Positions 87 to 48,150 of a stretch of 48,471 nucleotides of DNA are shown in pieces (the stretch's first letter is position 1; every line of letters starts with the position of its first letter). This DNA is from a virus. A program made the translations under genes and the position numbers. The stretch covers positions 1 to 48,471 of IMG/VR virus record IMGVR_UViG_3300002460_000047, one strand, 5' to 3'. The notes under the pieces were generated by a model, which was not told the origin of the DNA, did not search any database, and was given only the letters and a program-made list of their open reading frames with translations.

Positions 87-243
87 GTTTTATTAATTTA
101 TCCTTAACTTCATCAGATTCTAAACAATAAATATTACGCTCTTTACATTTACTTACTGCTTCAACATAGCCAAAACAATTCCTCTCTAATCCAATCTCAT
201 TAGCTAAATCAACAACAGTTTTTTCATTTAATACGTGTATCAT
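67..243 (-). CDS. Hypothetical protein (58 aa)
   Basis: ATG at 241..243 forms an ATGA overlap with the polymerase stop (240..242). I preferred it over the longer track ORF start at 261. Confidence 0.55.
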   Translation of the reverse strand: MIHVLNEKTVVDLANEIGLERNCFGYVEAVSKCKERNIYCLESDEVKDKLIKLYRCIY

Positions 244-1577
244 AATCCACACTCCCACCAAGAATCTCCAACTTTAATATCATTATCAATAGTAATAGGG
301 AGATTTAAATTAAATAAATCTTTCATTACCTCATTAGTTAATGATAATACTTTTTTGATCCAACTACAAGTAAAATCTACATATTCTTCTTTACAATCAA
401 ATACAACACTGTCATGAATTGTATTTACAATCAAGAACTTATCCCTATGCTGAATACCTTCTCTAAACAATTTTCCTAACATGATTAACACAATATCTGC
501 AGTTGCAGTGCCTTGCACAATATAATTCTTCAATTTTGTAGGACTAAAAGAATATTTTTCCCCCCGTCTTTGAGCCCACAAAGGCGCCGGTTGTATTTTA
601 AAATAATATCTTCTATTGGTTGGACCAATATAATATCCCCATTCACCTTCTATATGGGCATTAACAAAGTTTTCTAATCTCCGATTATATACTGCTAACT
701 GTGGGTACATAATATCTTCTTTTTTAATTAAATCATAAATTTTTTCTTCAGAGATACCGGATAATTGATTAATTTTTTTAACACCAGCACCATACGCTCT
801 TGCAAAAGAAAATGCTTTTATTGTGCTTCTCTTTTGCACCCATTCTGGATCTTTAGAATTAATTTTATTAACCACGTAGGCATATGGAACTTCCTCGGAT
901 GCAGCTAAACGTTTGATATGAAAATCTACCCCATTAATTATATCTTGTATATAAGCTTTATCTTTAGACAAACATGCTTGAACCACAATTTCTAATTGTT
1001 TGAAATCAACCTCAAGTATCTTACCGTTTTTAAATCTAGATGTAAAATGTTGTTTTACATTTGATTCAAAAGATTTAGGTTGATTTTGAACATTAGGATT
1101 TCTGCAAGATAATCTCCCTGTTTCTGTCTCCACATGAATAAATGAACCCCGTACACAACTATCCTCATATAATAATGATTCAATTGGATTGTAATAAGTA
1201 GATAGTTGCTTAGATATTCGTCTATTATCTAATAGTAATTTACAAAAATTAGAAGCAATATTTGCATTATAATGCTTACGAATCAATGTCTGATTTCTAA
1301 AATTCTCTGAAGCAAAATAAGATAAAACTTCATCATCTACACTATAGATGCCTTCTTTCTTTGTTTTCCACTCATCTAACGATTTTAATCCCAATCCTTT
1401 AATCTTAATAATTTTCTTTACTTTTTTAGTTTTTAATTGCCCTATTCGTTCCCCAGTCTTAAATACAACAGGCTTTCCAAATTCATCACTAATAGGTTCA
1501 ATAACTTCCTTCTTTAATTCTCCTCCAAAAAGAAGACAACTTATATGCTCATTAGATGATAAATTAAATTCTATCAT
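240..1577 (-). CDS. Family A DNA polymerase, polymerase (palm/fingers/thumb) fragment, 445 aa
   Basis: Pol I motifs are present: FNLSS (FNxxSpkQ region), TGRLSCRNPNVQNQP, motif A VDFKQLEI, motif B RSTIKAFSFARAYG (Phe at the E. coli F762 position) and motif C HDSVVFD. The track start at 1589 is TTG. ATG at 1575..1577 makes an ATGA overlap with the upstream ORF. Confidence 0.9.
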   Translation of the reverse strand: MIEFNLSSNEHISCLLFGGELKKEVIEPISDEFGKPVVFKTGERIGQLKTKKVKKIIKIKGLGLKSLDEWKTKKEGIYSVDDEVLSYFASENFRNQTLIRKHYNANIASNFCKLLLDNRRISKQLSTYYNPIESLLYEDSCVRGSFIHVETETGRLSCRNPNVQNQPKSFESNVKQHFTSRFKNGKILEVDFKQLEIVVQACLSKDKAYIQDIINGVDFHIKRLAASEEVPYAYVVNKINSKDPEWVQKRSTIKAFSFARAYGAGVKKINQLSGISEEKIYDLIKKEDIMYPQLAVYNRRLENFVNAHIEGEWGYYIGPTNRRYYFKIQPAPLWAQRRGEKYSFSPTKLKNYIVQGTATADIVLIMLGKLFREGIQHRDKFLIVNTIHDSVVFDCKEEYVDFTCSWIKKVLSLTNEVMKDLFNLNLPITIDNDIKVGDSWWECGL

Positions 1578-1867
1578 GATATCTTCCAACGATCTTGTAA
1601 AATTTTTAATTGTTCTATAAAATCAGTTAAATTTGGTATGCGCACAAATGCTGATTTTGTCACTGCCCCATCAAGAAAAAAAATTTCTAATTTAAGAGAT
1701 GCAACCCTATGTAGTTGATGACAAGGGGTATACCTAATACCGCCCCCCTCTACGCTCGTAGTTGGTACTGAAAAAAATGGAGGAGTAATACCATTAAAAA
1801 GTTTAAATTCAGGCTGTAAAATCTCAAAAGGTTTTAGTAATTTATTATAATCTTCTTTATGTTTCAT
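1574..1867 (-). CDS. Hypothetical protein (97 aa) inside the polymerase split
   Basis: ORF coupled to its neighbours by start/stop overlaps at both ends (ATGA overlap with the downstream gene). No recognisable motif. It contains a locally GC-rich patch. Confidence 0.5.
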   Translation of the reverse strand: MKHKEDYNKLLKPFEILQPEFKLFNGITPPFFSVPTTSVEGGGIRYTPCHQLHRVASLKLEIFFLDGAVTKSAFVRIPNLTDFIEQLKILQDRWKIS

Positions 1868-2199
1868 TTTAATAACTCCGGATTCTCGTATATGTTACCT
1901 ATTACTTCTATATATTTAGAACGTTCGCCTTTTGGATTATAACAAAGTCTTATTTTATCAAGTATATTAAATACATATTCATCAACAATTTGATGGTCAA
2001 ACTGATTTGGTTCAAACACACTGTCAATAATTATGTCGCCCTCATATATCTCTTTACCATTCTTATCTTTTAATCCTGTATACTGTTGTACAACAGCATT
2101 GGGGTACATACATAGAGCAACACTAGTTCCACCTATATTTAATGGTTTAGTTAATTCTTCAGTTATTGGATCATAAACTCTAAACTTAATCTCTCTCAT
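1864..2199 (-). CDS. YopX-domain protein
   Basis: MREIKFRVY...QQYTGLKDKNGKEIYEGDII...VIGNIYENPELL matches the conserved YopX family pattern. Confidence 0.8.
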   Translation of the reverse strand: MREIKFRVYDPITEELTKPLNIGGTSVALCMYPNAVVQQYTGLKDKNGKEIYEGDIIIDSVFEPNQFDHQIVDEYVFNILDKIRLCYNPKGERSKYIEVIGNIYENPELLK

Positions 2200-2409
2200 T
2201 TAATCTATCCTATTATTAGGATTCTTTTTATTCCATAAATTAATTATTTTTGCATATCTCTCAGGATAAAACCAAGCCATGCCCCCTAATAATAAACTAT
2301 TTAAACCTTTATCATAATCTTTATCTGCACTGATTAATTTATGTTTTTTAGCAAGTTCAAAAACACATCTCAGCTTTTCATTATGAGATAATTGTTTAGT
2401 ATTAGTCAT
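2200..2409 (-). CDS. Hypothetical protein (69 aa)
   Basis: ORF abuts the YopX start. Its ATG overlaps the stop of the upstream mini-ORF. Confidence 0.55.
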   Translation of the reverse strand: MTNTKQLSHNEKLRCVFELAKKHKLISADKDYDKGLNSLLLGGMAWFYPERYAKIINLWNKKNPNNRID

Positions 2410-2579
2410 TTTACACCCGCCTTAATACAAATTAGATCACCACTTATAGTATGCCATAAAATACCTGACTCTTTCCAACACTCTATTCTTTCATGTTGAT
2501 GACCATTTACTTGCATATGATAAGCATAAAATATAAAGCCAAATACAAATAACATACCTATAAAATTAATATACTTCAT
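2406..2579 (-). CDS. Hypothetical small membrane protein (57 aa), below the ORF-track cutoff
   Basis: Hand translation gives MKYINFIGMLFVFGFIFYAYHMQVNGHQHERIECWKESGILWHTISGDLICIKAGVK. ATGA overlaps at both ends (2576..2579 and 2406..2409). It has a hydrophobic N-terminal helix. Confidence 0.5.
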   Translation of the reverse strand: MKYINFIGMLFVFGFIFYAYHMQVNGHQHERIECWKESGILWHTISGDLICIKAGVK

Positions 2580-2788
2580 GAATATAACTCATCTAAATCA
2601 ATATTATGACCATGTACAATTTCCCAAAATTCTTCTTTAGTCAGGGGGGCTTTTCCATATTTCTCAACTCCCCTCATATGTTCGCCAATATCATAGAGAG
2701 CCGCACACAATGCGCCTGCTTTAAGCGCTCTTAAATAGGCTTGTGCGTCCTCAGACTTGTTAAGGTTGAATTCTATTGTTATTTTCAT
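2576..2788 (-). CDS. Hypothetical protein (70 aa)
   Basis: ORF coupled to the downstream mini-ORF by an ATGA overlap. Confidence 0.55.
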   Translation of the reverse strand: MKITIEFNLNKSEDAQAYLRALKAGALCAALYDIGEHMRGVEKYGKAPLTKEEFWEIVHGHNIDLDELYS

Positions 2789-2854
2789 TATAATAACTCA
2801 CTAATAAATAATAAAATCATTAACCCACCTATAGCATAAAATAACCAATCACAT

Positions 2855-3181
2855 TCATAATTCAACATTTATATTTTCCTTTTCAAATCTGAGCCAGCAC
2901 TTTACTGTCTCTATTTCTTTTGTTACAGCATATTGAATTGTTTTAATAACTACTTTAGTATATTCAGGATTAACATTAAATACAGGGTGGGGCAATTTTG
3001 TATATAATAACTTTGGAATAGCGCCATGTATTAAATTATACCTATATCTACGATCCTCTTTTAAATTGCCTGTTTTTTTAAATCCTAATGCGTAACAAGT
3101 AAATTTTCCTTCTTGAGAATAATCAATATTCAAAGAAGAATTTTTTAATATGTCATAAATTTTATATACAAATGTAATCAT
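2855..3181 (-). CDS. Hypothetical protein (108 aa)
   Basis: The track start at 3202 is TTG. The first ATG is at 3179..3181, with AGGAG upstream. There is no convincing nuclease motif. Confidence 0.55.
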   Translation of the reverse strand: MITFVYKIYDILKNSSLNIDYSQEGKFTCYALGFKKTGNLKEDRRYRYNLIHGAIPKLLYTKLPHPVFNVNPEYTKVVIKTIQYAVTKEIETVKCWLRFEKENINVEL

Positions 3182-3329
3182 CTTTTCTAAGGCTCCTATC
3201 AATTGGTTTATATTTCGTAGTATTTTCTAATGCTTTTTGAATCCTAACACATAGAAGTAATAGTTGATGTCTAGGTATGCGTTCTAATTGTTTAATAGTA
3301 AGAATTTTTCTTTTTCTGATTAATTTCAT
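3162..3329 (-). CDS. Hypothetical basic mini-protein (55 aa)
   Basis: Hand translation gives MKLIRKRKILTIKQLERIPRHQLLLLCVRIQKALENTTKYKPIDRSLRKDDYICI. ATGA overlap with the stop of the exonuclease-domain gene (3326..3329). Confidence 0.4.
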   Translation of the reverse strand: MKLIRKRKILTIKQLERIPRHQLLLLCVRIQKALENTTKYKPIDRSLRKDDYICI

Positions 3330-4102
3330 ATCCAGTACCTCTTAGCTAAATCTATTAATTGAAGATTTACTCCAAATAACTCAATACCTAATAACTCTTT
3401 ATTTGTTGTTAATATATCTTTATTAACATGTATACCATTATACTCTATCTCAGTTGTAGCTAGCACCGCATCCATCTGTAATTCAATTAATTTAGTCATT
3501 CCAAATTCTTCAGCTTTCTTAATTTGACCTAGATACACTTGCTCAGTAGCTAACACATCATTCATCACATCCTCTAATACTAATTCTTTAGGTAAATCTG
3601 CCATATCTTTGTATTTATAAACTTCTTCTTTAGTTAAATAATAAAACAATCTATATAAATCACTTTTATTAGAATCATTCCAACAATCATCACGATTAAA
3701 TAATAAATTTTCAATATGTTTAGATCTCTCTTTCCAACCATATTTATTAACTGCAATATCTCTAAGTGCAGGATATTTATGTCTTTGCCCAGATAAAATA
3801 TATTCTGCAAGCATAGTATCCCATATTCTACCGCCTTGCTTTATCCAATCTTGTAACTGAGGAGTTTTCCATAAATATAATAAATCAAATTTAATATTAT
3901 GCCCCACTAATAAATCAATACATTGTAAATACGTCCACCATTTACATAAATGATTTGGCTGATCTTTATAAATACTTACCACTTGATTAAGCTTACATAA
4001 TCCCAAAGCAACTATCTCGTTATATTGAGGATTGGCTTTCCTCCCAAACTTTTCCTGAATCCCTGTTTCTAAATCTATAACAATATAGTTTAAATTTATC
4101 AT
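3326..4102 (-). CDS. Family A DNA polymerase, 3'-5' exonuclease fragment (258 aa)
   Basis: DEDD motifs are present: ExoI VIDLETG, ExoII GHNIKFDL and ExoIII-like VMNDVLATEQVY. The C-terminus (...IEYNGIHVNKDIL...LIDLAKRYWI) ends exactly where Pol I proteins continue into the FNxxS segment that opens the 240..1577 ORF. Confidence 0.85.
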   Translation of the reverse strand: MINLNYIVIDLETGIQEKFGRKANPQYNEIVALGLCKLNQVVSIYKDQPNHLCKWWTYLQCIDLLVGHNIKFDLLYLWKTPQLQDWIKQGGRIWDTMLAEYILSGQRHKYPALRDIAVNKYGWKERSKHIENLLFNRDDCWNDSNKSDLYRLFYYLTKEEVYKYKDMADLPKELVLEDVMNDVLATEQVYLGQIKKAEEFGMTKLIELQMDAVLATTEIEYNGIHVNKDILTTNKELLGIELFGVNLQLIDLAKRYWI

Positions 4103-11679: not shown

Positions 11680-11930
11680 TACCGTGTGTATTTTATCCTT
11701 TGTGTCGGATAAACATAGACTTATCCGTTATAGGGGATTGTCAACCTTATTCTATACATTGTCAACTAAATAAGTATACAATATTACTAATATTATTTAG
11801 TAATCAAGTACACATAATGGTCAATAGTTCATTCAATACGTGAACTACTGCTCAAAGTAAGTACTATCCGTTAATACCCTAATTATAGGGTTTATTGACA
11901 CACAGAAGGATATTGTGAGTGCCAATAGTG

Positions 11931-12108
11931 GTTATAACATATATAACAAAGCGGATGATATAGTATTACATATTCTATGTCGTGCCACTAATAAGATATG
12001 TATCCCCGGCACAACAGTACATACACATATATAATCATAGTATATACAATAGGTTATAACTATATGATTAATAGTGCATATGTCTACCAACTATCAATGA
12101 GTTATAAC
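11931..12108. repeat. Three copies of the palindrome GTTATAAC
   Basis: Copies at 11931..11938, 12053..12060 and 12101..12108, each followed by A/T-ATA. They flank a very AT-rich tract (12020..12050). Confidence 0.8.
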
Positions 12109-12191
12109 TATGCCCTTTAATGCTCCATTATCGCCCCTTTAGCCAGCGTAATGATGACCTAGTAGGTGACTACTAGTGCTACTAAGATCGT

Positions 12192-12221
12192 TTGACAGAG
12201 GTGATTTATTCTGCCTAGAAT
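12192..12221 (+). promoter_or_regulatory. Rightward sigma70-type promoter
   Basis: TTGACA (12192..12197) - 18 nt - TAGAAT (12216..12221). Confidence 0.45.
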
Positions 12222-12234
12222 AAGGTATTTTTAA

Positions 12235-12265
12235 CACCCCCTAGACCCCCCATAGGGGTGGGGTT
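12235..12265 (+). other. Conspicuous C-run/G-run interrupted hairpin
   Basis: caCCCCCtagaCCCCCCataGGGGtGGGG. The two C runs can pair with the two G runs. It starts about 10 nt after the predicted start site of the 12192 promoter. Confidence 0.5.
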
Positions 12266-12466
12266 GATTTGTAGTGGTATAGGTGGTCAGCTCTATACGA
12301 GGTCAAATTTTCAAGTAATCTTAAGGTTTTCTTAAGAAGAGTTTGTAATACTTGTAATCGACACATATGTCCATATTTGACATTACGAAGAGTGGGAACT
12401 AAAGGTAGTTATTGCTCGTAACTGTCAAAAAATGACAGTAAATAGAAAATATATTTAGATTACCTG

Positions 12467-12495
12467 TTGACAATATTCATTTTATCTGCTACACT
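12467..12495 (+). promoter_or_regulatory. Rightward sigma70-type promoter (candidate late-operon promoter)
   Basis: TTGACA (12467..12472) - 17 nt - TACACT (12490..12495). It is preceded by the hairpin 12422..12438. Confidence 0.55.
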
Positions 12496-12499
12496 TACT

Positions 12500-12960
12500 A
12501 CAAGTGGTGAAATATTGTACTAAAATTACTTAATAAATTTCATCATGAAGCCTCCGGTTGTGGGATAAGTCAACTATGACGCTAGGAAACGAGACTAGTG
12601 ACTCGGGAGAACAGAACCTACGGGCGTGAAGAACGCATTAGTCCCTATAAAGAGGGATATTTATAAGGGCAGATAAACGCTGCCCACTTTTAACTTAGTG
12701 GCTACCTTTATGGTAGCCATATGTATTATCTGGGGGAGATGCTTAGGGCAAGCCTAAAATTTCCTCTAATTGAGGATAACCACGAACCCACTGGTATTAG
12801 GCACGAGTTACGCTGTACTAGGTTCAGTCAGCAATCCTTCCTTAACAAAGAAGGATAGAATTACTCTATAAGTCCTGTCCTCAAGAATAATAACGTTCGC
12901 TATTCGCGAACCAAAGATAACACTAAGTGTCACTTTATGTAACTAAATGGGTAAAATAAT
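12500..12960 (+). ncRNA. Candidate structured leader / ncRNA upstream of the late operon (about 460 nt)
   Basis: No RBS-preceded ORF. Perfect stems at 12667..12685, 12699..12719 (8 bp), 12834..12856 (7 bp) and 12895..12911 (6 bp). G/C content is visibly higher than in flanking genes. Confidence 0.3.
12667..12691 (+). terminator. Terminator-like hairpin inside the late leader
   Basis: GGGCAG-ataaacg-CTGCCC followed by acTTTT. It lies between the 12467 promoter and the first late gene. Confidence 0.35.
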
Positions 12961-12969
12961 AAGAATAAT

Positions 12970-13374
12970 ATGCTCCCAATCTTAGAAACTGCATTAGGAT
13001 CTCTTTTTAAAGGAATAGTCGACAAATTCTTCCCTGATAAATCAGAATCGGAAAAACGCCGAATTGCTGCTGAAATGGCACGCGAAGCACAGCAATTTGA
13101 GCTTTTAAAAGGGCAGTTAGACATAAATAAGGTAGAGGCCGCTAATCCAGATAAATTTATATCTGGCTGGCGCCCCTTTTTAGGTTGGGTGTGTGGATTT
13201 GGTTTAGCATGGGCATGGGTTATTATGCCCATTTTTAATTGGTTAATAGTCATATTAGGATTTCCGGCACCAGAGTTGCCAAAATTTAATACCGAAGAGT
13301 TAATTGCTATGTGTGTCAGCTTATTAGGGTTAGCAGGCTACCGCACGGTTGAAAAAATAAAAAGAAGAGATTAA
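12970..13374 (+). CDS. Holin, 3-TM gene-transfer-agent type (PF11351-like)
   Basis: The N-terminal amphipathic region, INKVEAAN...FISGWRPFLGWVCGFGLAWAWVIMP and the hydrophobic segments match the remembered family pattern (N..EA...F.aGWRP..GW). Confidence 0.5.
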   Translation: MLPILETALGSLFKGIVDKFFPDKSESEKRRIAAEMAREAQQFELLKGQLDINKVEAANPDKFISGWRPFLGWVCGFGLAWAWVIMPIFNWLIVILGFPAPELPKFNTEELIAMCVSLLGLAGYRTVEKIKRRD

Positions 13375-13378
13375 AGCA

Positions 13379-13813
13379 ATGTTAAAATATAAAGAAGAAT
13401 TTCCAGAGCAATTGCTAAAACTTATGCAAGAAGGTAAGAGTTTAACTCAAGTAGCCGCAGAATTTAAAATTAATAAAAATACGATTACCGAATGGTCTCA
13501 TACTCACCCTGAATTTAAAGCAGCTAAGGAATTAGGTATACTTTTAGCAGAAGCTTATTGGGAAGACGTGGGTCAAAAAGGTCTTAAAGGTATTTTAAAT
13601 AAGTTTAACCCGATGGCATGGTCGTATTACATGAAATGTCGATTTAAAGAAGATTGGGTTGAAGCTAATAATCAGAAGATTGAACTTATAGACGGTGTTA
13701 AAAAGCTCTCTAAAGAAGAGTTAGATAAGAAAATTGACGATGCATTAAAGGTTATTATCGCAGCTAAGAAGAAAACCTATTCTTCTGGCTCTGGCGGAAC
13801 ATTTTTAGAATGA
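13379..13813 (+). CDS. terS: Terminase small subunit
   Basis: N-terminal HTH (GKSLTQVAAEFKINKNTITEWS). Positioned immediately upstream of TerL. Confidence 0.65.
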   Translation: MLKYKEEFPEQLLKLMQEGKSLTQVAAEFKINKNTITEWSHTHPEFKAAKELGILLAEAYWEDVGQKGLKGILNKFNPMAWSYYMKCRFKEDWVEANNQKIELIDGVKKLSKEELDKKIDDALKVIIAAKKKTYSSGSGGTFLE

Positions 13814-14052
13814 ATTTCGATTCTTTAGCAGTCAGATATTATTATTGTGAACATTGCAAAGATATCAATGAATATATTGTTGATACGGGCATAATTAAGA
13901 GATTAGAATATCATCATAAACGATTATTCATCTTTCCTTGCACTAAATGTGGCGATCCTAGAACTTTAATGATGTCTACTGAAAAAGACTTTATTAAAGA
14001 ATACTTAAAAAGAGACCCTAGAAGCACAGTTAAAGGGTTAAAAAATGAATGA
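13810..14052 (+). CDS. Zinc-ribbon protein (80 aa)
   Basis: CEHC...CTKC. 4-nt overlap upstream and 8-nt overlap downstream. Confidence 0.55.
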   Translation: MNFDSLAVRYYYCEHCKDINEYIVDTGIIKRLEYHHKRLFIFPCTKCGDPRTLMMSTEKDFIKEYLKRDPRSTVKGLKNE

Positions 14053-14794
14053 TCTTCAAGATTTAAGTAGAAGCGATAAAGAAGAATTACTACTTGTATT
14101 AGAAGAAAACAATAGAAGGGAAAGAGAAAATAAGATCTTTAGTTATTACCCCGAGACTGGTAAATTAAGTAGGGATGCATATAAAAAACACATGATGTTT
14201 TTTAAAGCAGGTAAGCATTATAAAGAAAGAGCGTTAATAGCTGCAAATAGATCTGGTAAATCTTTAGCTGCATCCTTTGAGATGGCGTTACATTTGACTG
14301 GTTTATACGATAAGTTTCCGTGGTGGGAAGGTAAAAGATTTGATGAGCCTATCCAAGCGTGGTCGGTAGGAACAACTCATGAGACTACTAGGGATATTTT
14401 ACAAAGATATCTTTTAGGCCCAAGACATGATTTAGGTACAGGAATGATACCTAAAGATTGTATTATTAGAGTAACGTCTCAGCCAGGTACACAAGATGCT
14501 ATTCATGATGTTTATGTAAAACATGCTTCTGGAGGAACAAGTCAACTTTCCTTTAAAGCTTATATTCAAGAAGTAGAAGCATTTATGGGAACTTCTATGC
14601 ATGTTATTCATTTAGATGAAGAGCCCCATAGAACACAGATTTATTCAGAGTGTTTAACAAGAACTATGACTACCAATGGAATAATTATGTGTACATTTAC
14701 TCCTGTGCAAGGTTTATCAGACGTAGTATTGAGTTTTTTACCTGGTGGACAATTCCCCCCTGATGGTCACGGAGAGGTTAGAGTTTATGAGTAA
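14045..14794 (+). CDS. terL: Terminase large subunit, ATPase fragment (249 aa)
   Basis: Walker A ANRSGKS, Walker B VIHLDEEP and coupling motif CTFTPVQG. The ORF stops right at the ATPase/nuclease domain boundary. Confidence 0.85.
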   Translation: MNDLQDLSRSDKEELLLVLEENNRRERENKIFSYYPETGKLSRDAYKKHMMFFKAGKHYKERALIAANRSGKSLAASFEMALHLTGLYDKFPWWEGKRFDEPIQAWSVGTTHETTRDILQRYLLGPRHDLGTGMIPKDCIIRVTSQPGTQDAIHDVYVKHASGGTSQLSFKAYIQEVEAFMGTSMHVIHLDEEPHRTQIYSECLTRTMTTNGIIMCTFTPVQGLSDVVLSFLPGGQFPPDGHGEVRVYE

Positions 14795-15152
14795 TTTTTT
14801 TATTAAAAAAGAAGGTGAACCTATACAATCTTTAGTACAGATTCTTACTAAAAAAGCTCAAGAGGAATTTAATGTTTATTGTAATTTAAATGACATTTAT
14901 ATTAATCCAGAAATAGAAAATAATAGTTCTGCAGTCACTATAAATAAAATTAACTATCCAAATATAACTTATGCTGTAGGTGTTATGCACCCTATGGATG
15001 TAGAAACTGCAGTTAAAGCGTTAATTAAAGATTCATTACAAGATAAAAAACAAATTAGTATTAGAAAACCCATATCAGTAACTCAAGATGGTGATATATT
15101 AGGTAAATATACAATATATTGTCGTTTCGCAGACATATCGAGTCTTAGGTAA
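14787..15152 (+). CDS. Hypothetical protein (121 aa) inserted between the two terminase fragments
   Basis: The ATG overlaps the TerL-N stop (ATGAGTAA). It is very AT-rich and has no nuclease motif I recognise. Confidence 0.5.
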   Translation: MSNFFIKKEGEPIQSLVQILTKKAQEEFNVYCNLNDIYINPEIENNSSAVTINKINYPNITYAVGVMHPMDVETAVKALIKDSLQDKKQISIRKPISVTQDGDILGKYTIYCRFADISSLR

Positions 15153-15164
15153 AGGAGTTTTCAA

Positions 15165-15917
15165 GTGGCAAAATGGGTAATTAACCTCACTTGGGAAGAT
15201 GCCCCACACCTTTCAGAAGAGGATAAGAAAACTCTTCTCGAAAGTTATGCACCTAATGAGAGAGACGCAAGAAGTAAAGGATTACCAGCTTTAGGAACAG
15301 GTGCAATATACCCAATTCCAGAATCTGATATAGTAGTTCGCCCTTTTGAGATTCCGAAAGAGTGGCCTAGAGCTTACGGAATGGATGTAGGCTGGAAGAA
15401 AACAGCAGCACTTTGGGGTGCTTATAATGAACAAGAAGATACTTGGTATTTATACTCCGAGTACTATAGGGGTTATGCAGAACCCTCAGTTCATGCAGAT
15501 GCTATAAAACAGAGAGGCCCTTGGATCGCAGGCGTTATAGACCCTGCTGCTAGGGGGAGAGGGCAAAAAGACGGTTTAAGTTTATTAGATGAATATTCTA
15601 AATTAGGTTTAGAGTTATCTTTAGCAAATAATTCAGTAGAGCCTGGGATTTTAGAATGTTATCAAAGATTATCAACAGGAAGATGTAAGATTTTTTCTAC
15701 TTTACAACATTTTCTTGCAGAATATAGAATTTACCGCAGAGAAGAAAAGAAAAGCGGTGAGATAAAAGTAGTTAAATCACATGACCATTTAATGGATACA
15801 TTTAGATATTTAATAATGACTGGAATGGATGTTATGCAACCTTATCCTATGGATGAAGATGATGATGTTTCAGATACGATATATTCAACTGGTCGCTCAG
15901 AAGTATGTGGATATTAA
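15165..15917 (+). CDS. terL: Terminase large subunit, nuclease fragment (250 aa)
   Basis: GTG start 7 nt after AAGGAG. INLTWEDAPHL, GMDVGW (RNase H-like Asp), VIDPAA and HDHLMDTFRY are the usual C-terminal nuclease-domain motifs. Confidence 0.85.
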   Translation: MAKWVINLTWEDAPHLSEEDKKTLLESYAPNERDARSKGLPALGTGAIYPIPESDIVVRPFEIPKEWPRAYGMDVGWKKTAALWGAYNEQEDTWYLYSEYYRGYAEPSVHADAIKQRGPWIAGVIDPAARGRGQKDGLSLLDEYSKLGLELSLANNSVEPGILECYQRLSTGRCKIFSTLQHFLAEYRIYRREEKKSGEIKVVKSHDHLMDTFRYLIMTGMDVMQPYPMDEDDDVSDTIYSTGRSEVCGY

Positions 15918-15920
15918 TTA

Positions 15921-18071
15921 ATGCCTAATTACCAAGATCCAGAAATGTCACAAGATATGTCGCAAGACATGTCACAAGTTCCATATGTTGATGAGAATGC
16001 TGTAGACGAATACATGAATCCGACTGAACTTGGTTCCGAAACTGAAGTAAACATGGTTGAGTACGAAGAGCAAGCGCAGTCTATATTAATAGAATATTCA
16101 AAGAAAATAGATTTAACGCCCGAATTAGATGATGATAAGTTAGCAGAAATAGGTAAAAAAGTAATAACTGGGTTTGACGAAGATAAAAGATCATGCAGTG
16201 AATGGTCTATGCAAGTTGAAGAAGCTCAAAAGTTATCAAAACTAGCAAAAGAGCCTAAAAATTACCCACTACCTAGATCGGCCAATATTAAGTTTCCTCT
16301 AATTACTAATGCTTGCTATCAGTTTGCAGCAAGAACTTATCCAGAACTAATTAAAGATGGTAAAATCGTTAAAGCTGCGATTATAGGTACTGACCCAACC
16401 GGAGAGAAAGAAAAATTAGCCGATAGAATCTCTAGACATATGTCTTATCAGCTTTTGTATCAATCCTCAGAATGGGAACAATTATTAGATAAATTATTAG
16501 TATTATTACCAAATGTTGGCTTTTTATGTAAAAAAACATTCTTTGACCCATTACAAAGACGTATACGCAGTGTTCTATGTAATTATGAAGATTTATTTGT
16601 TAATTCAGAAGTGGCCGAATTAAAGCAAGCCCGCCGCATTAGTCATTGTATTCGATTGCATTTAAATGAATTAATTGAGGGTTCTCGTGCAGGAATATAT
16701 AGAAAAGAAAGCGTAGATAAATTAGTAGAAAAATACAAAACAGATGATCTTGACCCTGCGATAGAAATAATTGAGCAGCATCGTTATTTAGATTTAGACG
16801 ATGATGGGTATGAAGAACCCTATATTGTTACAGTTCTGAAAGAAGATCATCAAGTAATACGCATTATTGCTAGATATACTGAGAGCGATATTAGATTTAA
16901 TTCATCTGATGAAGTGACTAGAATAGAACCAATTCATTATTTTACAGATTACCATTTTTTACCATCCCCTGACGGTAAATTCCATAGTATGGGTTTTGGC
17001 ACCTTAATGTTGCACCTAAATGAAACTATTAATACAATTTTAAATCAATTAATAGATTCGGGAACATTAGCCAATTTAAGAGGTGGTTATATTGATGCAC
17101 GTATTAAATTACCTTCCGGACAATCTTTACATAATCCAGGAGAATGGAAACGAGTTAAAACAGTAGGGCTTATCGGTATTAAAGAAGGCATTGTGCCAAT
17201 TGAATATCGAGAACCATCAACTGTTTTATATCAATTATTATCTCTTTTAATCCAAACAGGAAGAGATTTATCATCTGCTACAGATGTATTAAGTGGTAAA
17301 CAGCAAGCAAGTAGGGCGCCCGCCAGTACAGTAGCTACCTTAGTTGAACAAGGATTAAAAATCTTTAATTCTATTCAAAGACGCTTATATAGAAGTATGA
17401 AAGACGAGTTTCAAAAGATATTTAAACTTAATAAGATTTATTTAGATCCTTATGAGTATATTACGATATTGGACGATGAATTTGCAATCGCTCAAAAAGA
17501 TTATGCAAATGAGTCAATAGATATATTACCCATTGCTGATCCTAATTTCTCAAGTGACGCACAAAGATTAGTTAAAGTTCAAGCTATGATGAATATCATT
17601 GATGATCCAGAAGTTAATCGTAAAGAAATTTTAACACGGTTCTTAAAAGCGTTAGATGTATCAGAACCAGAAAAAATAATTAAACCAGAAGACACTAATG
17701 CTCCGCCTCCGTTAGAAGCATTAGAGTTACAGGGTAAATTTGAAGAATCCGCATCTAAATTAGATTTAGAAGGTCGAAAAGTAGATTTGCAAGAAAAACA
17801 AGCTACGGTTCAAATGGCTAAAGTTAAAGCAGAGATTCTTAAATTAGAGGCGGATACGATAAAAGCATTAGCAGATGCAGAATCAGCCGAAGCTGGCAAT
17901 CAATTAGATGTATATAAATCGCATTTAGAAACATTAAAAACGAAATTAGATATGATTCTTAAAGAAAAAGAATTAGATCGAAATATAACGCAGCAAATTA
18001 TAGATGCAAGAAATATAGAAGAAGATAGAAAAGTACAGAGGGTTAAAAATGAAGCACCACCTGTTAGCTGA
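15921..18071 (+). CDS. Portal protein
   Basis: 716 aa, immediately after TerL. It has a long C-terminal coiled-coil (barrel-like) segment, as in P22-type portals. Confidence 0.7.
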   Translation: MPNYQDPEMSQDMSQDMSQVPYVDENAVDEYMNPTELGSETEVNMVEYEEQAQSILIEYSKKIDLTPELDDDKLAEIGKKVITGFDEDKRSCSEWSMQVEEAQKLSKLAKEPKNYPLPRSANIKFPLITNACYQFAARTYPELIKDGKIVKAAIIGTDPTGEKEKLADRISRHMSYQLLYQSSEWEQLLDKLLVLLPNVGFLCKKTFFDPLQRRIRSVLCNYEDLFVNSEVAELKQARRISHCIRLHLNELIEGSRAGIYRKESVDKLVEKYKTDDLDPAIEIIEQHRYLDLDDDGYEEPYIVTVLKEDHQVIRIIARYTESDIRFNSSDEVTRIEPIHYFTDYHFLPSPDGKFHSMGFGTLMLHLNETINTILNQLIDSGTLANLRGGYIDARIKLPSGQSLHNPGEWKRVKTVGLIGIKEGIVPIEYREPSTVLYQLLSLLIQTGRDLSSATDVLSGKQQASRAPASTVATLVEQGLKIFNSIQRRLYRSMKDEFQKIFKLNKIYLDPYEYITILDDEFAIAQKDYANESIDILPIADPNFSSDAQRLVKVQAMMNIIDDPEVNRKEILTRFLKALDVSEPEKIIKPEDTNAPPPLEALELQGKFEESASKLDLEGRKVDLQEKQATVQMAKVKAEILKLEADTIKALADAESAEAGNQLDVYKSHLETLKTKLDMILKEKELDRNITQQIIDARNIEEDRKVQRVKNEAPPVS
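15945..15980 (+). repeat. Three tandem 12-nt units (ATGTCNCAAGAN) encoding MSQD-MSQD-MSQ
   Basis: atgtcacaagat / atgtcgcaagac / atgtcacaagtt at the portal N-terminus. Confidence 0.9.
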
Positions 18072-18288
18072 TTGGTATCAAAATAAAGTTACTCAATTAA
18101 TGTTTGAGTTATTAGAAGAATATAAAAAAGAAGCAGGGGATGTTATTCTTAATTCTCAAGAAATTTATTCGGATGCAGGATGTAAAAATATAGCTAGATT
18201 AATTGGACAGTGTCAATTAATTGAACAGCTAAAAGAAGTAGAAGAATTTTTTCCTAGTGAAAAATTAGAACAAATAGGAGAAGAATAG
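18049..18288 (+). CDS. Hypothetical protein (79 aa)
   Basis: ORF with GAGGG 6 nt upstream. It overlaps the portal 3' end by 23 nt. Confidence 0.5.
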   Translation: MKHHLLADWYQNKVTQLMFELLEEYKKEAGDVILNSQEIYSDAGCKNIARLIGQCQLIEQLKEVEEFFPSEKLEQIGEE

Positions 18289-42311: not shown

Positions 42312-43145
42312 TTACCTCCGGATCTTAATCAATTCTTTAACTTCATTAAACACAGTCTCTGGAATATGCCATTTCTGGTATAACTCTCTCACCTTCATTT
42401 CGTGTTGAGACATATCAACATCTTTCAATTCTTCTTTAAGTTTCTTAAGATATCTCGATTTCTTTAATTCTTTTGCTTGATCAACTTTTCCTTGCAATAC
42501 TAGCCAATTATATATGCCGGGAATATTATCAATTCGATCACCAGTAACTACTTGCATCCAAAAATTAAAACTAGCTTCTTGCTCATCAATATAGACTAAG
42601 ACTCTAGATTTTAAATTATAATGATATCCGGGTATCATTCGTAAATCCTTATCTATACTAGCAATATAGAGCATTTCATAATTATTATACAGATTATATT
42701 GCTCTGTTGCAAGTTTTCCGATAGCATCGTCCGCCTCTTCCCCTTCGATAATTTCCGCACTGTAGTCACGCACCAATAAATTTCTAACTTGTTGATAAAA
42801 ATGGGGTTTAGGTTTATGCGCTCTATTTTCTTTATATACCTTAATAGACGCTAAATTATATCTAAAATTCTTTTTAATATTCGGATGAGTGATGTATAAT
42901 CTATAGTTACGAATGTTTAAATCCGAAAAAATAGAATTCATTTTAGAACGTAAATTTATTTGTAATTGAGCTTCTGGACAAAGTCGTCTATATCTATAGA
43001 TTTCTCCACCATTTTGGGTTTGTGCGTGTTCTGCTTTACCTTTTGTTTTATATAAATGCCCATTACAACAATAAAAAGATCGTTCATTCGATAAAGCAAT
43101 CATATAGACTAAAATATCGCCATCAATTGCTAATAGCTTACTCAT
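42312..43145 (-). CDS. 5'-3' exonuclease / flap endonuclease (T7 gp6-like, PIN + H3TH)
   Basis: LLAIDGDILVY, EADDAIG and VTGDRIDNIPGI. The ATG at 43143..43145 overlaps the SpoVR stop (ATGAGTAA). The longer track start is hydrophobic and unlikely. Confidence 0.75.
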   Translation of the reverse strand: MSKLLAIDGDILVYMIALSNERSFYCCNGHLYKTKGKAEHAQTQNGGEIYRYRRLCPEAQLQINLRSKMNSIFSDLNIRNYRLYITHPNIKKNFRYNLASIKVYKENRAHKPKPHFYQQVRNLLVRDYSAEIIEGEEADDAIGKLATEQYNLYNNYEMLYIASIDKDLRMIPGYHYNLKSRVLVYIDEQEASFNFWMQVVTGDRIDNIPGIYNWLVLQGKVDQAKELKKSRYLKKLKEELKDVDMSQHEMKVRELYQKWHIPETVFNEVKELIKIRR

Positions 43146-44577
43146 TGCCGTTTCCTTTATACACAAGGTCATCATCATTATATAAATAATAAAAGATAGG
43201 GTGACCCCACAATTTACGTAAAGCTTTAAATACCTCTGCTGCAGGATCAATTAACTGTCTGTTTTTATTGCATTTAATAGTTATATACAATGTTCTAGAC
43301 TTTTTAAAATCGCAACCGTTAATATAAACTGTAGGTGAATTAGAAATATAATCAAATTGCATAGCTAATCTATGCCTAATTTGCTCATATCCTTCATAAT
43401 CATGGATATTATTAATTAAATTAGCATCGTCATAACGATTATGATCAATGCTAAATAACTTTAAATCTCTCATTACTTTAGGAGATAAATACTGTAAAAT
43501 AAAACTAGAATCTCTAAAATTATATGCAGCATAGCATATTTCATCAATCCAATTTTTACCAATTAATTGCGGAAACCATTTTTTATCCTCTTCAGTAGGA
43601 GAGGTGCATATCCTTTTGATATCTTCAAAAATCTTATATCCTAATGCATAAGGATTAAACCCAGAATAATATTTAGAATCCCAATCTAATTGATGATTAG
43701 AGCTCGCTTTCATTATTAAATATTCTATATATTCTCCGTCTGAAAGTACCTTCTGATCATACAAATCATCCATTAATTCACTTTCCCAAAAGTTTGCAAA
43801 CCCCTCATGTATAATTTTCATAAGGGGTTGCGGATATAAATACTGTCTAAGCGCACAATAACCATTAACAATCTCTCTTTGCCATGGTTTTAATCGAGAT
43901 GAATTTTTACCTACAAAAGCTAATACGTTTTCTTCATAAAATCTAGATTTTACATTGGGCAAATTCTTTTTATTCAAATTTAAGGTATTAGATAATCTAG
44001 ATTCAGAGTTAAGTAATTCTTGTTGTCTTTTTTTAATTCGTTTCTCATATGTTTTATTAGTTCTGTTTACATTACAATGATGTACAGCTAAACTAGAGAG
44101 TGCGTGACAAAGGTCTAAAAAATCTTCTACTTGCTTTTCTCCGTGCAGCTCCTCACATTCTGTTACTAATGTTTGAAATTGTTTCATCATAGACAAAGCG
44201 CTGCGAGCCTTTGTATGCTCTTGAAAAATTACATTATTTTTAAACACTGTAGAATGGCCTACTGCGGCATGGCACATAACGAGAATTTGTTTAACTCTCG
44301 TATTAGTCTCTAATAAGTAACATAACGTGGGATCAGTATTAAAAATACACTCTAAGGCTACGGGTAAAGTATTTGCTTTATATTTATTATATAATTCAAC
44401 ATATTCTTTACCAAAATACCAATGATTATAACATATTGGAAGCCCACTACAAAAAATACGAATCATATCGTCAAAAGTAACTAATTCAAACAATGGCTCA
44501 TAAAAAGTAAGCCCATATTTCTTAGTGGCTATTTCTTTTATTTTTAGCCACAAATCATCAATATCATAATCCATCAT
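43138..44577 (-). CDS. spoVR: SpoVR/YcgB-family protein
   Basis: 479 aa. The N-terminal pattern YGL.FYEP.FE......M, the CHAAVGHSTVFKNN motif (bacterial AH..GHndFFknN) and the overall length match. Confidence 0.75.
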   Translation of the reverse strand: MMDYDIDDLWLKIKEIATKKYGLTFYEPLFELVTFDDMIRIFCSGLPICYNHWYFGKEYVELYNKYKANTLPVALECIFNTDPTLCYLLETNTRVKQILVMCHAAVGHSTVFKNNVIFQEHTKARSALSMMKQFQTLVTECEELHGEKQVEDFLDLCHALSSLAVHHCNVNRTNKTYEKRIKKRQQELLNSESRLSNTLNLNKKNLPNVKSRFYEENVLAFVGKNSSRLKPWQREIVNGYCALRQYLYPQPLMKIIHEGFANFWESELMDDLYDQKVLSDGEYIEYLIMKASSNHQLDWDSKYYSGFNPYALGYKIFEDIKRICTSPTEEDKKWFPQLIGKNWIDEICYAAYNFRDSSFILQYLSPKVMRDLKLFSIDHNRYDDANLINNIHDYEGYEQIRHRLAMQFDYISNSPTVYINGCDFKKSRTLYITIKCNKNRQLIDPAAEVFKALRKLWGHPIFYYLYNDDDLVYKGNGNE

Positions 44578-45725
44578 GTTTTTTTCACCTCAAAAAATGA
44601 TCGAAAAACAGGATAAATTTCTTTATAATTTCTCACTTTCTTATAAGACATGTTTACAAATTGTTTCTTTAATTTATCAAATAAAGGAAAAACTTCATCT
44701 TCAACATATTCAAATTCACTCACATGAATATAAAATAAATATTGAGCTTTAGGCAAGATCGCATTAGATAAAATCGCCATTAAGTTAGGGGTATCTTCTA
44801 CCCAGTTTCCCCCGTCACTGGCTTGTGCAATATAAATATTGTAATCATTTGCAGAATATTTTTGATTTATTAAAGAATTAATCACTTCATATCCAGAAGA
44901 CATTATAGTACCACCACTCTTTGTACCATAAAAAAATTCTTTTTCTGACACTTCTTCGGCAGTCTCAGTATGCCGAACAAATACTACTTCTACCTGATCA
45001 TAATGTTTATTTAAAAATAAATTAAGAAGTAAGAAAAACCTTTTAGCTAAATCTTTTTCAAATTCTCCCATACTTCCCGACACATCCAATAAACAGAACA
45101 TGACTGCTTTAGTATCAGGAATCTCTTGCAAGGTTTTATAATTATACCTTAAATCATCTTCAATTAAAAAAGCAGGCTGGTATGTGGGGTTATTAACTTT
45201 AAGGGCTGTTCGGCGGGCTATAGAATTTAACATGGTTTTTTTAATATTTAATAGGGCTGGATTCCCTTTTTTACAGAACCCCGCTCTTTTTAACTCGTAT
45301 TTATTATGGGTTAATGTTTGTTTAACAAAATTAGGTAATTCTAAATCATCAAAAAATAAATTAGCAAATTCAGCGCTAGTTAACGTAAAGTCAAAATCAT
45401 CATTATCATTGCCGGAAGGTCCTCCTGCCGTTCCTCCCCCCTCACCTGTTGGTTTCGGCACTTTTGAGCCCTTAGTAAATTTTTTATTCCCGGGATAAAC
45501 TCTAATAATTTCTCCCACATCCGGCCTATATTTTATATCCGGCACGTCTAACCCTGCTAATTTAATTTTAACCTTCTTCCCTTTTAAATCAAATCCGCCA
45601 ATAGATGCTGTATCAATTATAGTCTTAACTTTAGACTTTAAATGATCTTTATATTTTCTAATAAACTTTTCTCTATTAGAAAAAGAAGTGCTCTTTAATC
45701 TATTCGGATTAGTAATTACTGTCAT
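44574..45725 (-). CDS. yeaH: YeaH/YhbH-family protein (DUF444, vWA-like)
   Basis: 383 aa, with a Gly-rich acidic loop (GEGGGTAGGPSGNDNDDFDF) and a MIDAS-like LLDVSGSMG. ATGA overlaps with both neighbours. Confidence 0.75.
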   Translation of the reverse strand: MTVITNPNRLKSTSFSNREKFIRKYKDHLKSKVKTIIDTASIGGFDLKGKKVKIKLAGLDVPDIKYRPDVGEIIRVYPGNKKFTKGSKVPKPTGEGGGTAGGPSGNDNDDFDFTLTSAEFANLFFDDLELPNFVKQTLTHNKYELKRAGFCKKGNPALLNIKKTMLNSIARRTALKVNNPTYQPAFLIEDDLRYNYKTLQEIPDTKAVMFCLLDVSGSMGEFEKDLAKRFFLLLNLFLNKHYDQVEVVFVRHTETAEEVSEKEFFYGTKSGGTIMSSGYEVINSLINQKYSANDYNIYIAQASDGGNWVEDTPNLMAILSNAILPKAQYLFYIHVSEFEYVEDEVFPLFDKLKKQFVNMSYKKVRNYKEIYPVFRSFFEVKKT

Positions 45726-47635: not shown

Positions 47636-47646
47636 GAAGTTACTCC

Positions 47647-48150
47647 TCAAACCCCTTCTTCAGCTTCTTTTGTAAGATTTTGTACCAACTCTAATGCTTC
47701 TGATAATTCTGTAGCCGTAATGCTCCTAGTTCCCGAACGGCAATTTGCAATAGCAAGATCAACCGCTGCTTTGACCATCATTCCCGTACGAGCACCGTTT
47801 GAATCATATCTTGTAGTTTTAGAACTCGCAGTAAATGGCGGCTTTTCGGAGCTTCTCGATGTGCTTGGTTTTGATGACTTAGTAGTAGTTGTTTCGGTTA
47901 CCTCTCCTAAAATTTTAATAATTTTATTTGATGTGCCTGTAGCGGTTGTTTGCTTATCTACATAAGCTTGGACACTGTCGCCAGCTTTTAATGCCGGAGG
48001 AACATCTATTCCTGCAAATTGAAAGAACTCTTCATTATCATCTGTTGTATAAACATGTCTATTATATTTATCACCACTAACTTTCGCAGTAAACGGACCT
48101 TTTACTTCTACATCTACAACTGTAAATTTAACTTCATTCAAATGTTTCAT
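47647..48150 (-). CDS. Hypothetical protein: N-terminal beta-rich (OB-like?) domain, Ser/Thr-rich linker, acidic C-terminus
   Basis: The composition and architecture resemble an SSB-like layout. No SSB is recognised elsewhere in the genome. This is speculative. Confidence 0.3.
   Translation of the reverse strand: MKHLNEVKFTVVDVEVKGPFTAKVSGDKYNRHVYTTDDNEEFFQFAGIDVPPALKAGDSVQAYVDKQTTATGTSNKIIKILGEVTETTTTKSSKPSTSRSSEKPPFTASSKTTRYDSNGARTGMMVKAAVDLAIANCRSGTRSITATELSEALELVQNLTKEAEEGV

Follow-up and report, generated by a model that had tools for sequence, protein, structure and literature searches.

Large terminases (TerL) are usually treated as single chains, in which ATP hydrolysis, DNA translocation and cutting are coupled via a covalent linker. 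The viral DNA analysed here, corresponding to positions 1 to 48,471 of the IMG/VR record IMGVR_UViG_3300002460_000047 (48,471 nucleotides (nt), henceforth the window), encodes TerL as two half-size genes, TerL-N and TerL-C. The two are found on the same strand, and are separated by an open reading frame (ORF) of 121 amino acids (aa), hereafter called the insert. The packaging operon hosting these genes is organized as follows.

13379..13813 (+), opening gene of the operon, a candidate for the small subunit of the terminase (TerS); it matches PHROG 309 'terminase small subunit' (E 1e-13) and, weakly, the Sf6_terminase and helix-turn-helix Pfam families
13810..14052 (+), ORF of 80 aa with a CxxC...CxxC pattern, overlapping TerS and TerL-N
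14045..14794 (+), TerL-N, 249 aa, the large-terminase ATPase core, bearing Walker A, Walker B and the motif III TFTP
14771..14777 (+), GGAGAGG, Shine-Dalgarno-like, within the TerL-N tail codons (G-E-V), 9 nt 5' of the insert ATG
14787..15152 (+), insert ORF ('family A'), 121 aa; a homolog is found at the same place in the related locus L027
15152..15157 (+), AAGGAG, Shine-Dalgarno for TerL-C, overlapping the insert TAA, 7 nt 5' of the GTG
15165..15917 (+), TerL-C, 250 aa, GTG start, comprising the end of Terminase_6N plus Terminase_6C
15921..18071 (+), portal protein, next gene of the operon; PF23899 SU10_portal was assigned on an identical protein

Anatomy of the two half-size genes

TerL-N terminates with the residues ...GEVRVYE, followed by TAA (TAT GAG TAA), and the ATG of the insert at 14787 overlaps this stop (ATGAGTAA). 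The insert ends with the TAA at 15150-15152, and TerL-C opens with VAKWVINLTWEDAPHL. The halves are 370 nt apart and are read in different frames (frame 2 for TerL-N, frame 0 for TerL-C). The insert takes up the gap between them, leaving 12 nt non-coding. The guanine plus cytosine (GC) content is 27% in the gap versus 36% in the flanks; at 27% GC, an open frame of 121 codons has a probability of about 2e-5 to occur by chance, according to our own arithmetic. Promoter-like sites in the gap are fewer than in shuffled sequences, and no terminator was found in it on the + strand. TerL-C is separated by 3 nt from the portal gene, whose location after TerL is a gene order common to relatives. Coordinates, motifs, stop/start overlap, AAGGAG and GTG signals, the different frames and the AT-rich gap filled by an ORF had all been reported in a first-pass annotation made from the sequence, and were found to be correct when compared with the sequence and the ORF map.

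Terminase_6N and Terminase_6C, which are typically found in one polypeptide, are distributed here over two ORFs. TerL-N corresponds to positions 3-150 of the 215 of the Pfam model Terminase_6N (E 1.6e-14, 54.5 bits, cutoff 22), and matches PHROG 31467 (E 4.5e-60), a family of 261 positions labelled 'unknown function' which is in effect the N half of TerL. TerL-C corresponds to positions 164-212 of Terminase_6N plus Terminase_6C (22.8 bits, cutoff 22.6), and matches PHROG 5653 (E 4e-26). TerL-N features the Walker A motif AANRSGKS, the Walker B motif VIHLDEE and the motif III TFTP. Conservation reaches at least 93% over 95 loci, split and intact, for the Walker A lysine (K72), the Walker B residues D191, E192 and E193, motif III (T217-P220) and the nuclease aspartates found within MDVGW, VIDPA and DHLMD. 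The hypothesis of a pseudogene was discarded on this basis.

The position of the break was mapped by aligning the halves with the intact TerLs of EBPR podovirus 1, Pseudomonas phage JB8 and Chlorobiaceae phage CV-1-33. The break corresponds to the loop between the tract F-L-P-G-G, located after the motif III TFTP, and the strand W-[DE]-D-A-P-H-L. When an intact homolog is compared with the P22 nuclease domain 4DKW, the two align (E 2e-20) only from the residue equivalent to about residue 42 of TerL-C. Because of this, TerL-C includes, besides the nuclease, the end of the ATPase domain: the last β-strand and the lid/linker span residues from 1 to about 41, and the RNase-H-like nuclease the remainder. 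The first-pass annotation had located the break at the ATPase/nuclease boundary. It falls instead inside the Terminase_6N model and, as judged from the alignments, is placed within the ATPase domain, about 40 aa upstream of the border with the nuclease.

The length of the break loop differs by 0-9 residues among intact proteins, and in one of them (P0142) the loop hosts an in-frame insertion of about 75 aa. At the break, both halves carry extra tails which are non-homologous, of 14 aa on TerL-N (QFPPDGHGEVRVYE) and 3 aa on TerL-C. Like the canonical one-chain terminases (P22 gp2, Sf6 gp2, T4 gp17), the window proteins include Terminase_6N and Terminase_6C, and all the catalytic motifs are found in the same order. 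They differ in that motif III and the last ATPase strand plus lid belong to separate chains. With the chain interrupted there, communication between ATPase and nuclease must cross a non-covalent interface.

Spread of the split and content of the slot

Homologs of TerL-N were sought in a database of 5.8 billion proteins, and the best 120, down to about 52% identity, were examined. Nearly all (118 of 120) are half-size proteins, ranging from 201 to 286 aa. Half-size are also about one fourth of the 150 best TerL-C representatives. About 100 related loci were gathered by a profile-guided scan of viral contigs and by targeted look-ups; about 26 of them are split, every one in the same loop. A bootstrapped neighbour-joining (NJ) tree was built on TerL-N. 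The window belongs to a clade of ten loci, all split, supported by a bootstrap of 99.7%. Within the clade, a trio carrying the same small ORF ('family B', see below) and an inner group of six loci are supported at 98.7% and 98.3%, respectively, and the branching of the window, L027, L106 and L107 is not resolved in the NJ tree. The closest IMG/VR relative is L004, a 46-kb contig (61-63% identity) split at the same point. Its halves are separated by a spacer of 36 nt, which contains three in-frame stops and no ORF. Intact terL genes were found only at about 55% identity to the window or lower. In GenBank, the complete metagenome-assembled genome MW202785.1 features two adjacent coding sequences of 255 and 243 aa, both annotated as 'large terminase protein'. 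Split and intact loci are interspersed in the tree outside the ten-locus clade, where nodes are weak. A single origin of all split TerLs obtained a bootstrap support of 0%, but the weakness of the deep nodes leaves the matter unsettled.

These figures strongly support the lineage-specific tolerance for split enzymes hinted at in the first-pass annotation. As judged from the tree, the two-polypeptide TerL is an inherited state and not a peculiarity of the window genome. A truncated TerL of 394 aa, 58% identical, was also noticed beside a phage integrase in a long bacterial contig (L028, ena:ERZ25039605 contig_59433, 398 kb). This is probably a decaying prophage or satellite, and could provide a hint to the host range.

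The exact protein was retrieved from 21 contigs, found in several ENA and Logan samples. Seven contigs fetched from different samples (L020-L026) are 100% identical to the interval 11787..18152 of the window over 1-6.4 kb. Seven identical independent assemblies exclude both misassembly and a sequencing frameshift, and with them the assembly artefact contemplated in the first-pass annotation. The seven copies being 100% identical, no microdiversity signal was available for a test of selection. Zero microdiversity in seven copies is unusual for an environmental phage, unless all derive from one site or from a bloom.

The sequences found between the halves, in the interval here called the slot, vary among lineages. 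Identities given below are those of TerL-N to the window.

L027, 73%: ORF of 136 aa, homologous to the window insert (38% identity, E 2e-18), with overlapping stop/start at both ends
L106, L108 and L109, 74%, 64% and 62%: slot empty, TerL-C overlapping TerL-N by 8-20 nt
L107, 74%: ORF unrelated to the window insert
L029, L031 and L040 (sister clade), 53-59%: small 'family B' ORF, unrelated to family A
L072 (distant split lineage), about 51%: protein of 142 aa of the T5orf172/MUG113 type (GIY-YIG superfamily), above Pfam thresholds
L062 (distant), about 49%: 3.3 kb (L062:1499-4812) with several genes, including one for a GroES-like co-chaperonin

In MW202785.1 a groES gene is located just 3' of the portal gene.

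Taking the ten-locus clade as a whole, the slot hosts family A ORFs in two loci, family B ORFs in three, another ORF in one, a spacer in one and nothing in the remaining three. The presence of the intervening ORF is polymorphic, because family A is found in the window and L027, is missing in L106, L108, L109 and L004, and is replaced in L107 by a different ORF. Non-coding spacers of 36-133 nt are found between the halves in L004, L066, L082 and MW202785.1. No similarity was detected among cargo families, or between them and any other window ORF, and in all the cargo-bearing loci the GC content of the gap is lower than that of the flanks.

The first-pass annotation had taken the 121-aa ORF as the cause of the split. 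Relatives exhibiting 62-74% identity are split at the same place, with stop and start overlapping and no insert, and the split is hence independent of the 121-aa ORF. Judging from the distribution of slot contents in the tree, it is most parsimonious that the split is ancestral to the ten-locus clade, and that cargo would have been gained, lost or swapped later. The slot is best read as a putative landing pad for unrelated small genes.

The organization of the junctions is informative on how a split could arise. Intact relatives fit the pattern ...P-G-G-K-x-P-(variable)-G-S-K-[FY]-v-v-x-a-t-W-D-D-A-P-H-L. Split genes feature a stop in the variable part, and restart as M-[SA]-K-[FYW]; in L043, the TAA is directly followed by the ATG. 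A stop in the loop and an ATG replacing the Gly codon are therefore sufficient to make the split, and the 'MSK' start shared by distant split lineages is thus explained without common descent. A GGAG-like motif is located in the TerL-N tail upstream of nearly every restart (GGAGAAG in L106, AGGAGAAG in L108, GGAGAGG in the window). In relatives without insert the equivalent TerL-N tail codons precede TerL-C. In the window and L027 this coupling site serves now the insert, and the window TerL-C has its own AAGGAG. The family A ORF of L027 overlaps the upstream gene at ATGA.. and the downstream gene at ATGTCTAA. The frame of one half relative to the other varies by lineage (same frame with stops, +1, -1), and the initiation codon always falls in one column of the alignment. 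Taken together, variable frame and fixed initiation codon fit re-initiation, and not frameshifting or bypassing.

Signals of splicing or recoding were sought at the locus. No intron or other RNA family was detected by Rfam, either in the whole window at the gathering threshold or in the interval 14400..15500 at E <= 10, in accordance with the first-pass annotation, in which no obvious group I intron helices had been noticed. The RNA spanning the gap (14770..15180) folds less stably than shuffled sequences (z = +1.19). Group I/II introns were rejected on account of the Rfam and folding results, of the 12 nt which are non-coding, and of the zero-length gaps of relatives. No Hint/intein Pfam domain was found in either half. 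Halves of split inteins measure 88-105 aa (N-intein) and 33-54 aa (C-intein, ending with HN plus Cys/Ser/Thr) (PMC2677866); inteins and split inteins were likewise discarded, as the tails of 14 and 3 aa are far shorter and no Hint/intein match was obtained. Programmed frameshift and bypass were rejected because the frame relation is 0, +1 or -1 among lineages and the start codon is always at the same column. The bypass of T4 gene 60 covers 50 nt, and the 370-nt gap found here is far longer.

Inteins are found in some TerL relatives (P0125, P0128, P0142, P0143, P0165). Some interrupt the P-loop (ANR|C...HN|TGKT), one of these including a LAGLIDADG domain, and none is located in the break loop. 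In P0125 an intein is inserted in the nuclease DHLMD motif of a protein which is itself a half-size TerL-C.

Family A comprises only the window and L027 proteins, according to single-sequence and profile searches of the 5.8 billion proteins and to the scan of viral contigs. The two are 38% identical, versus 71-73% for the TerL halves. AlphaFold2, fed with the two-sequence alignment, predicts a compact α/β domain with the order α-β-β-β-α-β-β-β (mean pLDDT 77, pTM 0.67), and on this model the insert is a fast-evolving α/β ORFan. The insert has no match in Pfam, PHROG or NCBIfam. Foldseek searches of PDB and BFVD with the insert model gave nothing at E <= 1e-3, the best TM-scores (about 0.5) being to uncharacterised phage proteins, and a profile search of PDB sequences gave nothing even at E <= 10. 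These results agree with the absence of homing-endonuclease motifs noticed earlier. PADLOC gave a weak match of the insert (REase_II, 15.6 bits, E 0.002), covering the C-terminal portion of its model for a type II restriction enzyme. The match was not found for the L027 homolog and was treated as unsupported. A nuclease was rejected as candidate, because all the searches mentioned above were blank and the lone REase_II match is not shared by L027.

Insert and TerL-C share the reading frame, being separated by the TAA and four codons, and readthrough of the stop would fuse them. The frame relation is not kept in L027, and a readthrough fusion was set aside as probably due to chance.

Interpretation of the two-gene terminase

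The terminase of the locus is probably a true two-polypeptide enzyme, expressed from an operon with translational coupling in which the slot would serve as landing pad for small cargo genes. This interpretation is built on the anatomy of the locus and its conservation, on the way split loci are distributed in the tree, and on the lack of signals for splicing or recoding. The terL gene would have been interrupted in a variable surface loop, giving rise to a first gene for the ATPase core and to a second gene for the last ATPase strand, the lid/linker and the nuclease. Codons of the TerL-N tail would supply both a Shine-Dalgarno sequence and a stop overlapping the next start, and couple in this way the translation of the two genes. 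The halves would reassemble non-covalently, the N-terminal strand and the lid of TerL-C completing the ATPase fold of TerL-N, as suggested by conservation. Small low-GC cargo genes would come and go in the slot between lineages, the 121-aa ORF being one of them. In the window, the insert would have taken over the TerL-N coupling site, TerL-C restarting from its own AAGGAG and GTG. The insert is most likely accessory cargo without a required function in the terminase, since equally close relatives lack a slot gene, and would be non-essential.

Some observations weigh against this interpretation. The window and L027 are not resolved as sisters (27% bootstrap), and family A could consequently be older, and have been lost several times; this blurs the order 'split first, insert later' in the inner clade. 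Conservation is the evidence for the non-covalent assembly of the halves. A single-sequence AlphaFold2 model of the joined halves reached a pLDDT of 32 and was not used. A role of the insert in terminase biology, beyond that of cargo, would also agree with its close translational coupling to both neighbours. Deep TerL nodes are weak, and do not decide between one origin and several, or the re-fusion of some intact genes.

It is possible, but unlikely, that the insert came first. A free-standing mobile gene, encoding a homing endonuclease or similar, would have invaded an ancestral intact terL, supplied stop, start and ribosome-binding signals, and later been lost, degraded or replaced; the window ORF would be a degenerate descendant or a replacement. 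The sequence of events would conform to the published model of fractured genes, in which the invader gives an upstream stop and a downstream Met and overlaps the downstream part (PMC2677866; Aeh1 nrdA/mobE, PMC3045599). The T5orf172/MUG113 gene in the slot of L072 is of the GIY-YIG superfamily, the spacers of 36-133 nt could be deletion scars, and the GC of cargo below that of the flanks and the weak REase_II match of the window insert also point in this direction. However, neither the window ORF nor its L027 homolog features an endonuclease domain in Pfam, PHROGs, NCBIfam, the PDB profile search or Foldseek run on the pLDDT-77 model, and the REase match is missing in the L027 homolog. No close relative has an intact terL as homing target, and cargo families are mutually unrelated. 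Furthermore, a stop in the loop and an ATG for the Gly of G-S-K-[FY] make a split without any insertion, as in the TAA-ATG of L043. The recurrent insertion of free-standing mobile genes had been suggested in the first-pass annotation. The suggestion holds in part, as unrelated small ORFs, including the T5orf172 gene of L072, are found in the slot across lineages, but the window ORF lacks a nuclease signature. The comparison with relatives, envisaged there to reveal a homing signature, similarly confirmed that the presence of the insert varies, but all ten members of the clade are split and none provides an intact target.

Rather improbable is that the 121-aa protein is a functional terminase accessory, such as an assembly factor or a regulator joining or timing the halves, kept in place for stoichiometric co-translation. 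Its role would be analogous to that of the insertion-derived tails assembling the split NrdA. The insert is translationally coupled on both sides in the window and L027, and has kept position and orientation in two genomes whose TerLs are only 71-73% identical. It is confidently predicted to be a folded α/β domain, and family B ORFs are found in the same slot in the sister clade. The equally close L106, L108 and L109 have no slot gene, and such a gene is therefore not required for terminase function. The insert moreover evolves far faster than its neighbours (38% vs 71-73% identity), only two members are detectable among 5.8 billion proteins, and its low GC suggests a foreign origin.

A further reading, to which we give little credit, views the split as adaptive. 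The separation of the ATPase core from lid and nuclease would generate a regulated, assembly-dependent terminase, and slot genes, family A in the window and family B in the sister clade, would be lineage-specific third subunits tuning assembly. The coupling of nuclease to ATPase might for instance be delayed until procapsids become available, or else defence proteins that sense TerL, such as Avs, might recognise it differently. If so, the same loop would have been split independently several times by convergent evolution.

The restoration of a full-length TerL, whether through a group I/II intron, an intein (split or not), translational bypassing or programmed frameshifting, has a very low probability, and so has an assembly error or a pseudogene. 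Introns and inteins are common in phage terL, relatives of the family have inteins at the P-loop and at the DHLMD motif, and a split intein is described as fracturing one gp17-type terminase (PMC2677866), but the locus has no Rfam match at E up to 10, a gap which the ORF fills except for 12 nt and which folds with z = +1.19, tails too short for a split intein with no Hint/intein match, frames differing between lineages so that no single recoding event fits, seven identical assemblies, and catalytic residues kept across dozens of lineages.

By analogy, the nearest precedent in mechanism is the nrdA gene of the Aeromonas phage Aeh1, which is split by the free-standing endonuclease gene mobE, and encodes two polypeptides assembling via insertion-derived tails (Crona et al. 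2011, PMC3045599). In both cases an essential phage enzyme is encoded by two adjacent genes on the same strand, with a small ORF between them and without splicing of either RNA or protein; the halves bear short additional tails at the break, and function is presumably restored by non-covalent assembly. In Aeh1, the gene in between can be recognised as a mobile endonuclease of HNH type, and nrdA is intact in close relatives, whereas the window ORF bears no nuclease signature, the split is found in all close relatives, and the slot may be empty or host different genes. NrdA assembly and activity have been demonstrated experimentally, whereas those of TerL are here predicted from conservation.

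'Fractured genes', including one for a gp17-type terminase, have been described in marine and freshwater phage metagenomes, and in the model proposed the loss of the endonuclease leaves adjacent halves (step III) (Dassa et al. 2009, PMC2677866). As in the window, the N part, a free-standing ORF and the C part are found on one strand, the interrupted genes include a terminase, the inserted ORF overlaps the part of the gene lying downstream, and adjacent halves remain once the intervening gene is lost. In those loci, split-intein halves flank the endonuclease and trans-splicing restores one protein, whereas no intein sequence is found at the present locus. Breaks occur there at a conserved catalytic motif, and in the window in a poorly conserved loop. 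The terminases are also of different type, myovirus gp17-like in one case and P22/Sf6/EBPR-podovirus-like in the other.

In the MEP401-type OM43 phages, the DNA polymerase is split into two ORFs by a small ORF without known homology (PMC10580990). The likeness concerns the splitting of a core enzyme with a small ORFan, and an arrangement kept across related uncultured aquatic phages; the PolA of the window is split as well. In the OM43 phages the split enzyme is the DNA polymerase, TerL is reported as a single gene, and the age of the split was not separated from that of the insert (PMC10580990).

A two-gene TerL lacking inteins and introns and broken at this loop was not found described in the full-text literature searched, which leaves most subscription journals outside its coverage. 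The locus belongs to the known class of genes in pieces. It is noteworthy because the gene in pieces is that of the packaging motor, a large clade has this state as a fixed trait and the slot behaves as a putative landing pad. In a large, apparently successful clade the chain is interrupted within the ATPase domain, which amounts to a natural experiment on the need for covalent continuity, and makes separable fragments readily available for biochemical work. Annotation, phylogenies based on marker genes and estimates of completeness are all confused by half-size TerL genes, as exemplified by the N half labelled 'unknown function' in PHROGs and by the two 'large terminase' coding sequences of GenBank. 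The variable slot is in turn a clean system to monitor gain and loss of small ORFans inside an essential, translationally coupled operon.

Neighbouring genes and other genome features

The 80-aa ORF at 13810..14052 has no family match in Pfam or PHROG. Its two CxxC pairs are zinc-ribbon-like, and a short ORF lies in the equivalent place in L027 (64 aa), L106 (55 aa) and L107 (65 aa). Directly upstream of the terminase genes is a GTA_holin_3TM (PF11351) gene (12970..13374, + strand), an order kept in L027, L106 and L109.

As noted in the first-pass annotation, PolA is also split in the window. Its pieces are found on the - strand in the interval 240..4102, the N part at 3326..4102 (PHROG 9556/17 'DNA polymerase') and the DNA_pol_A domain at 240..1589. 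The parts are about 1.7 kb apart, and at least four small ORFs are found between them (1574..1867, 1864..2199, matching phrog_98, 2576..2788 and 2855..3202), none related to the TerL insert.

At the other end of the window, a gene trio located at 43138..47650 (- strand) encodes PrkA (AAA_PrkA plus PrkA, E 2.5e-137), DUF444 (E 7e-111) and SpoVR (E 1e-102) proteins. PrkA/DUF444/SpoVR is a bacterial operon associated with stress and sporulation, and the three are apparent auxiliary genes in this phage genome.

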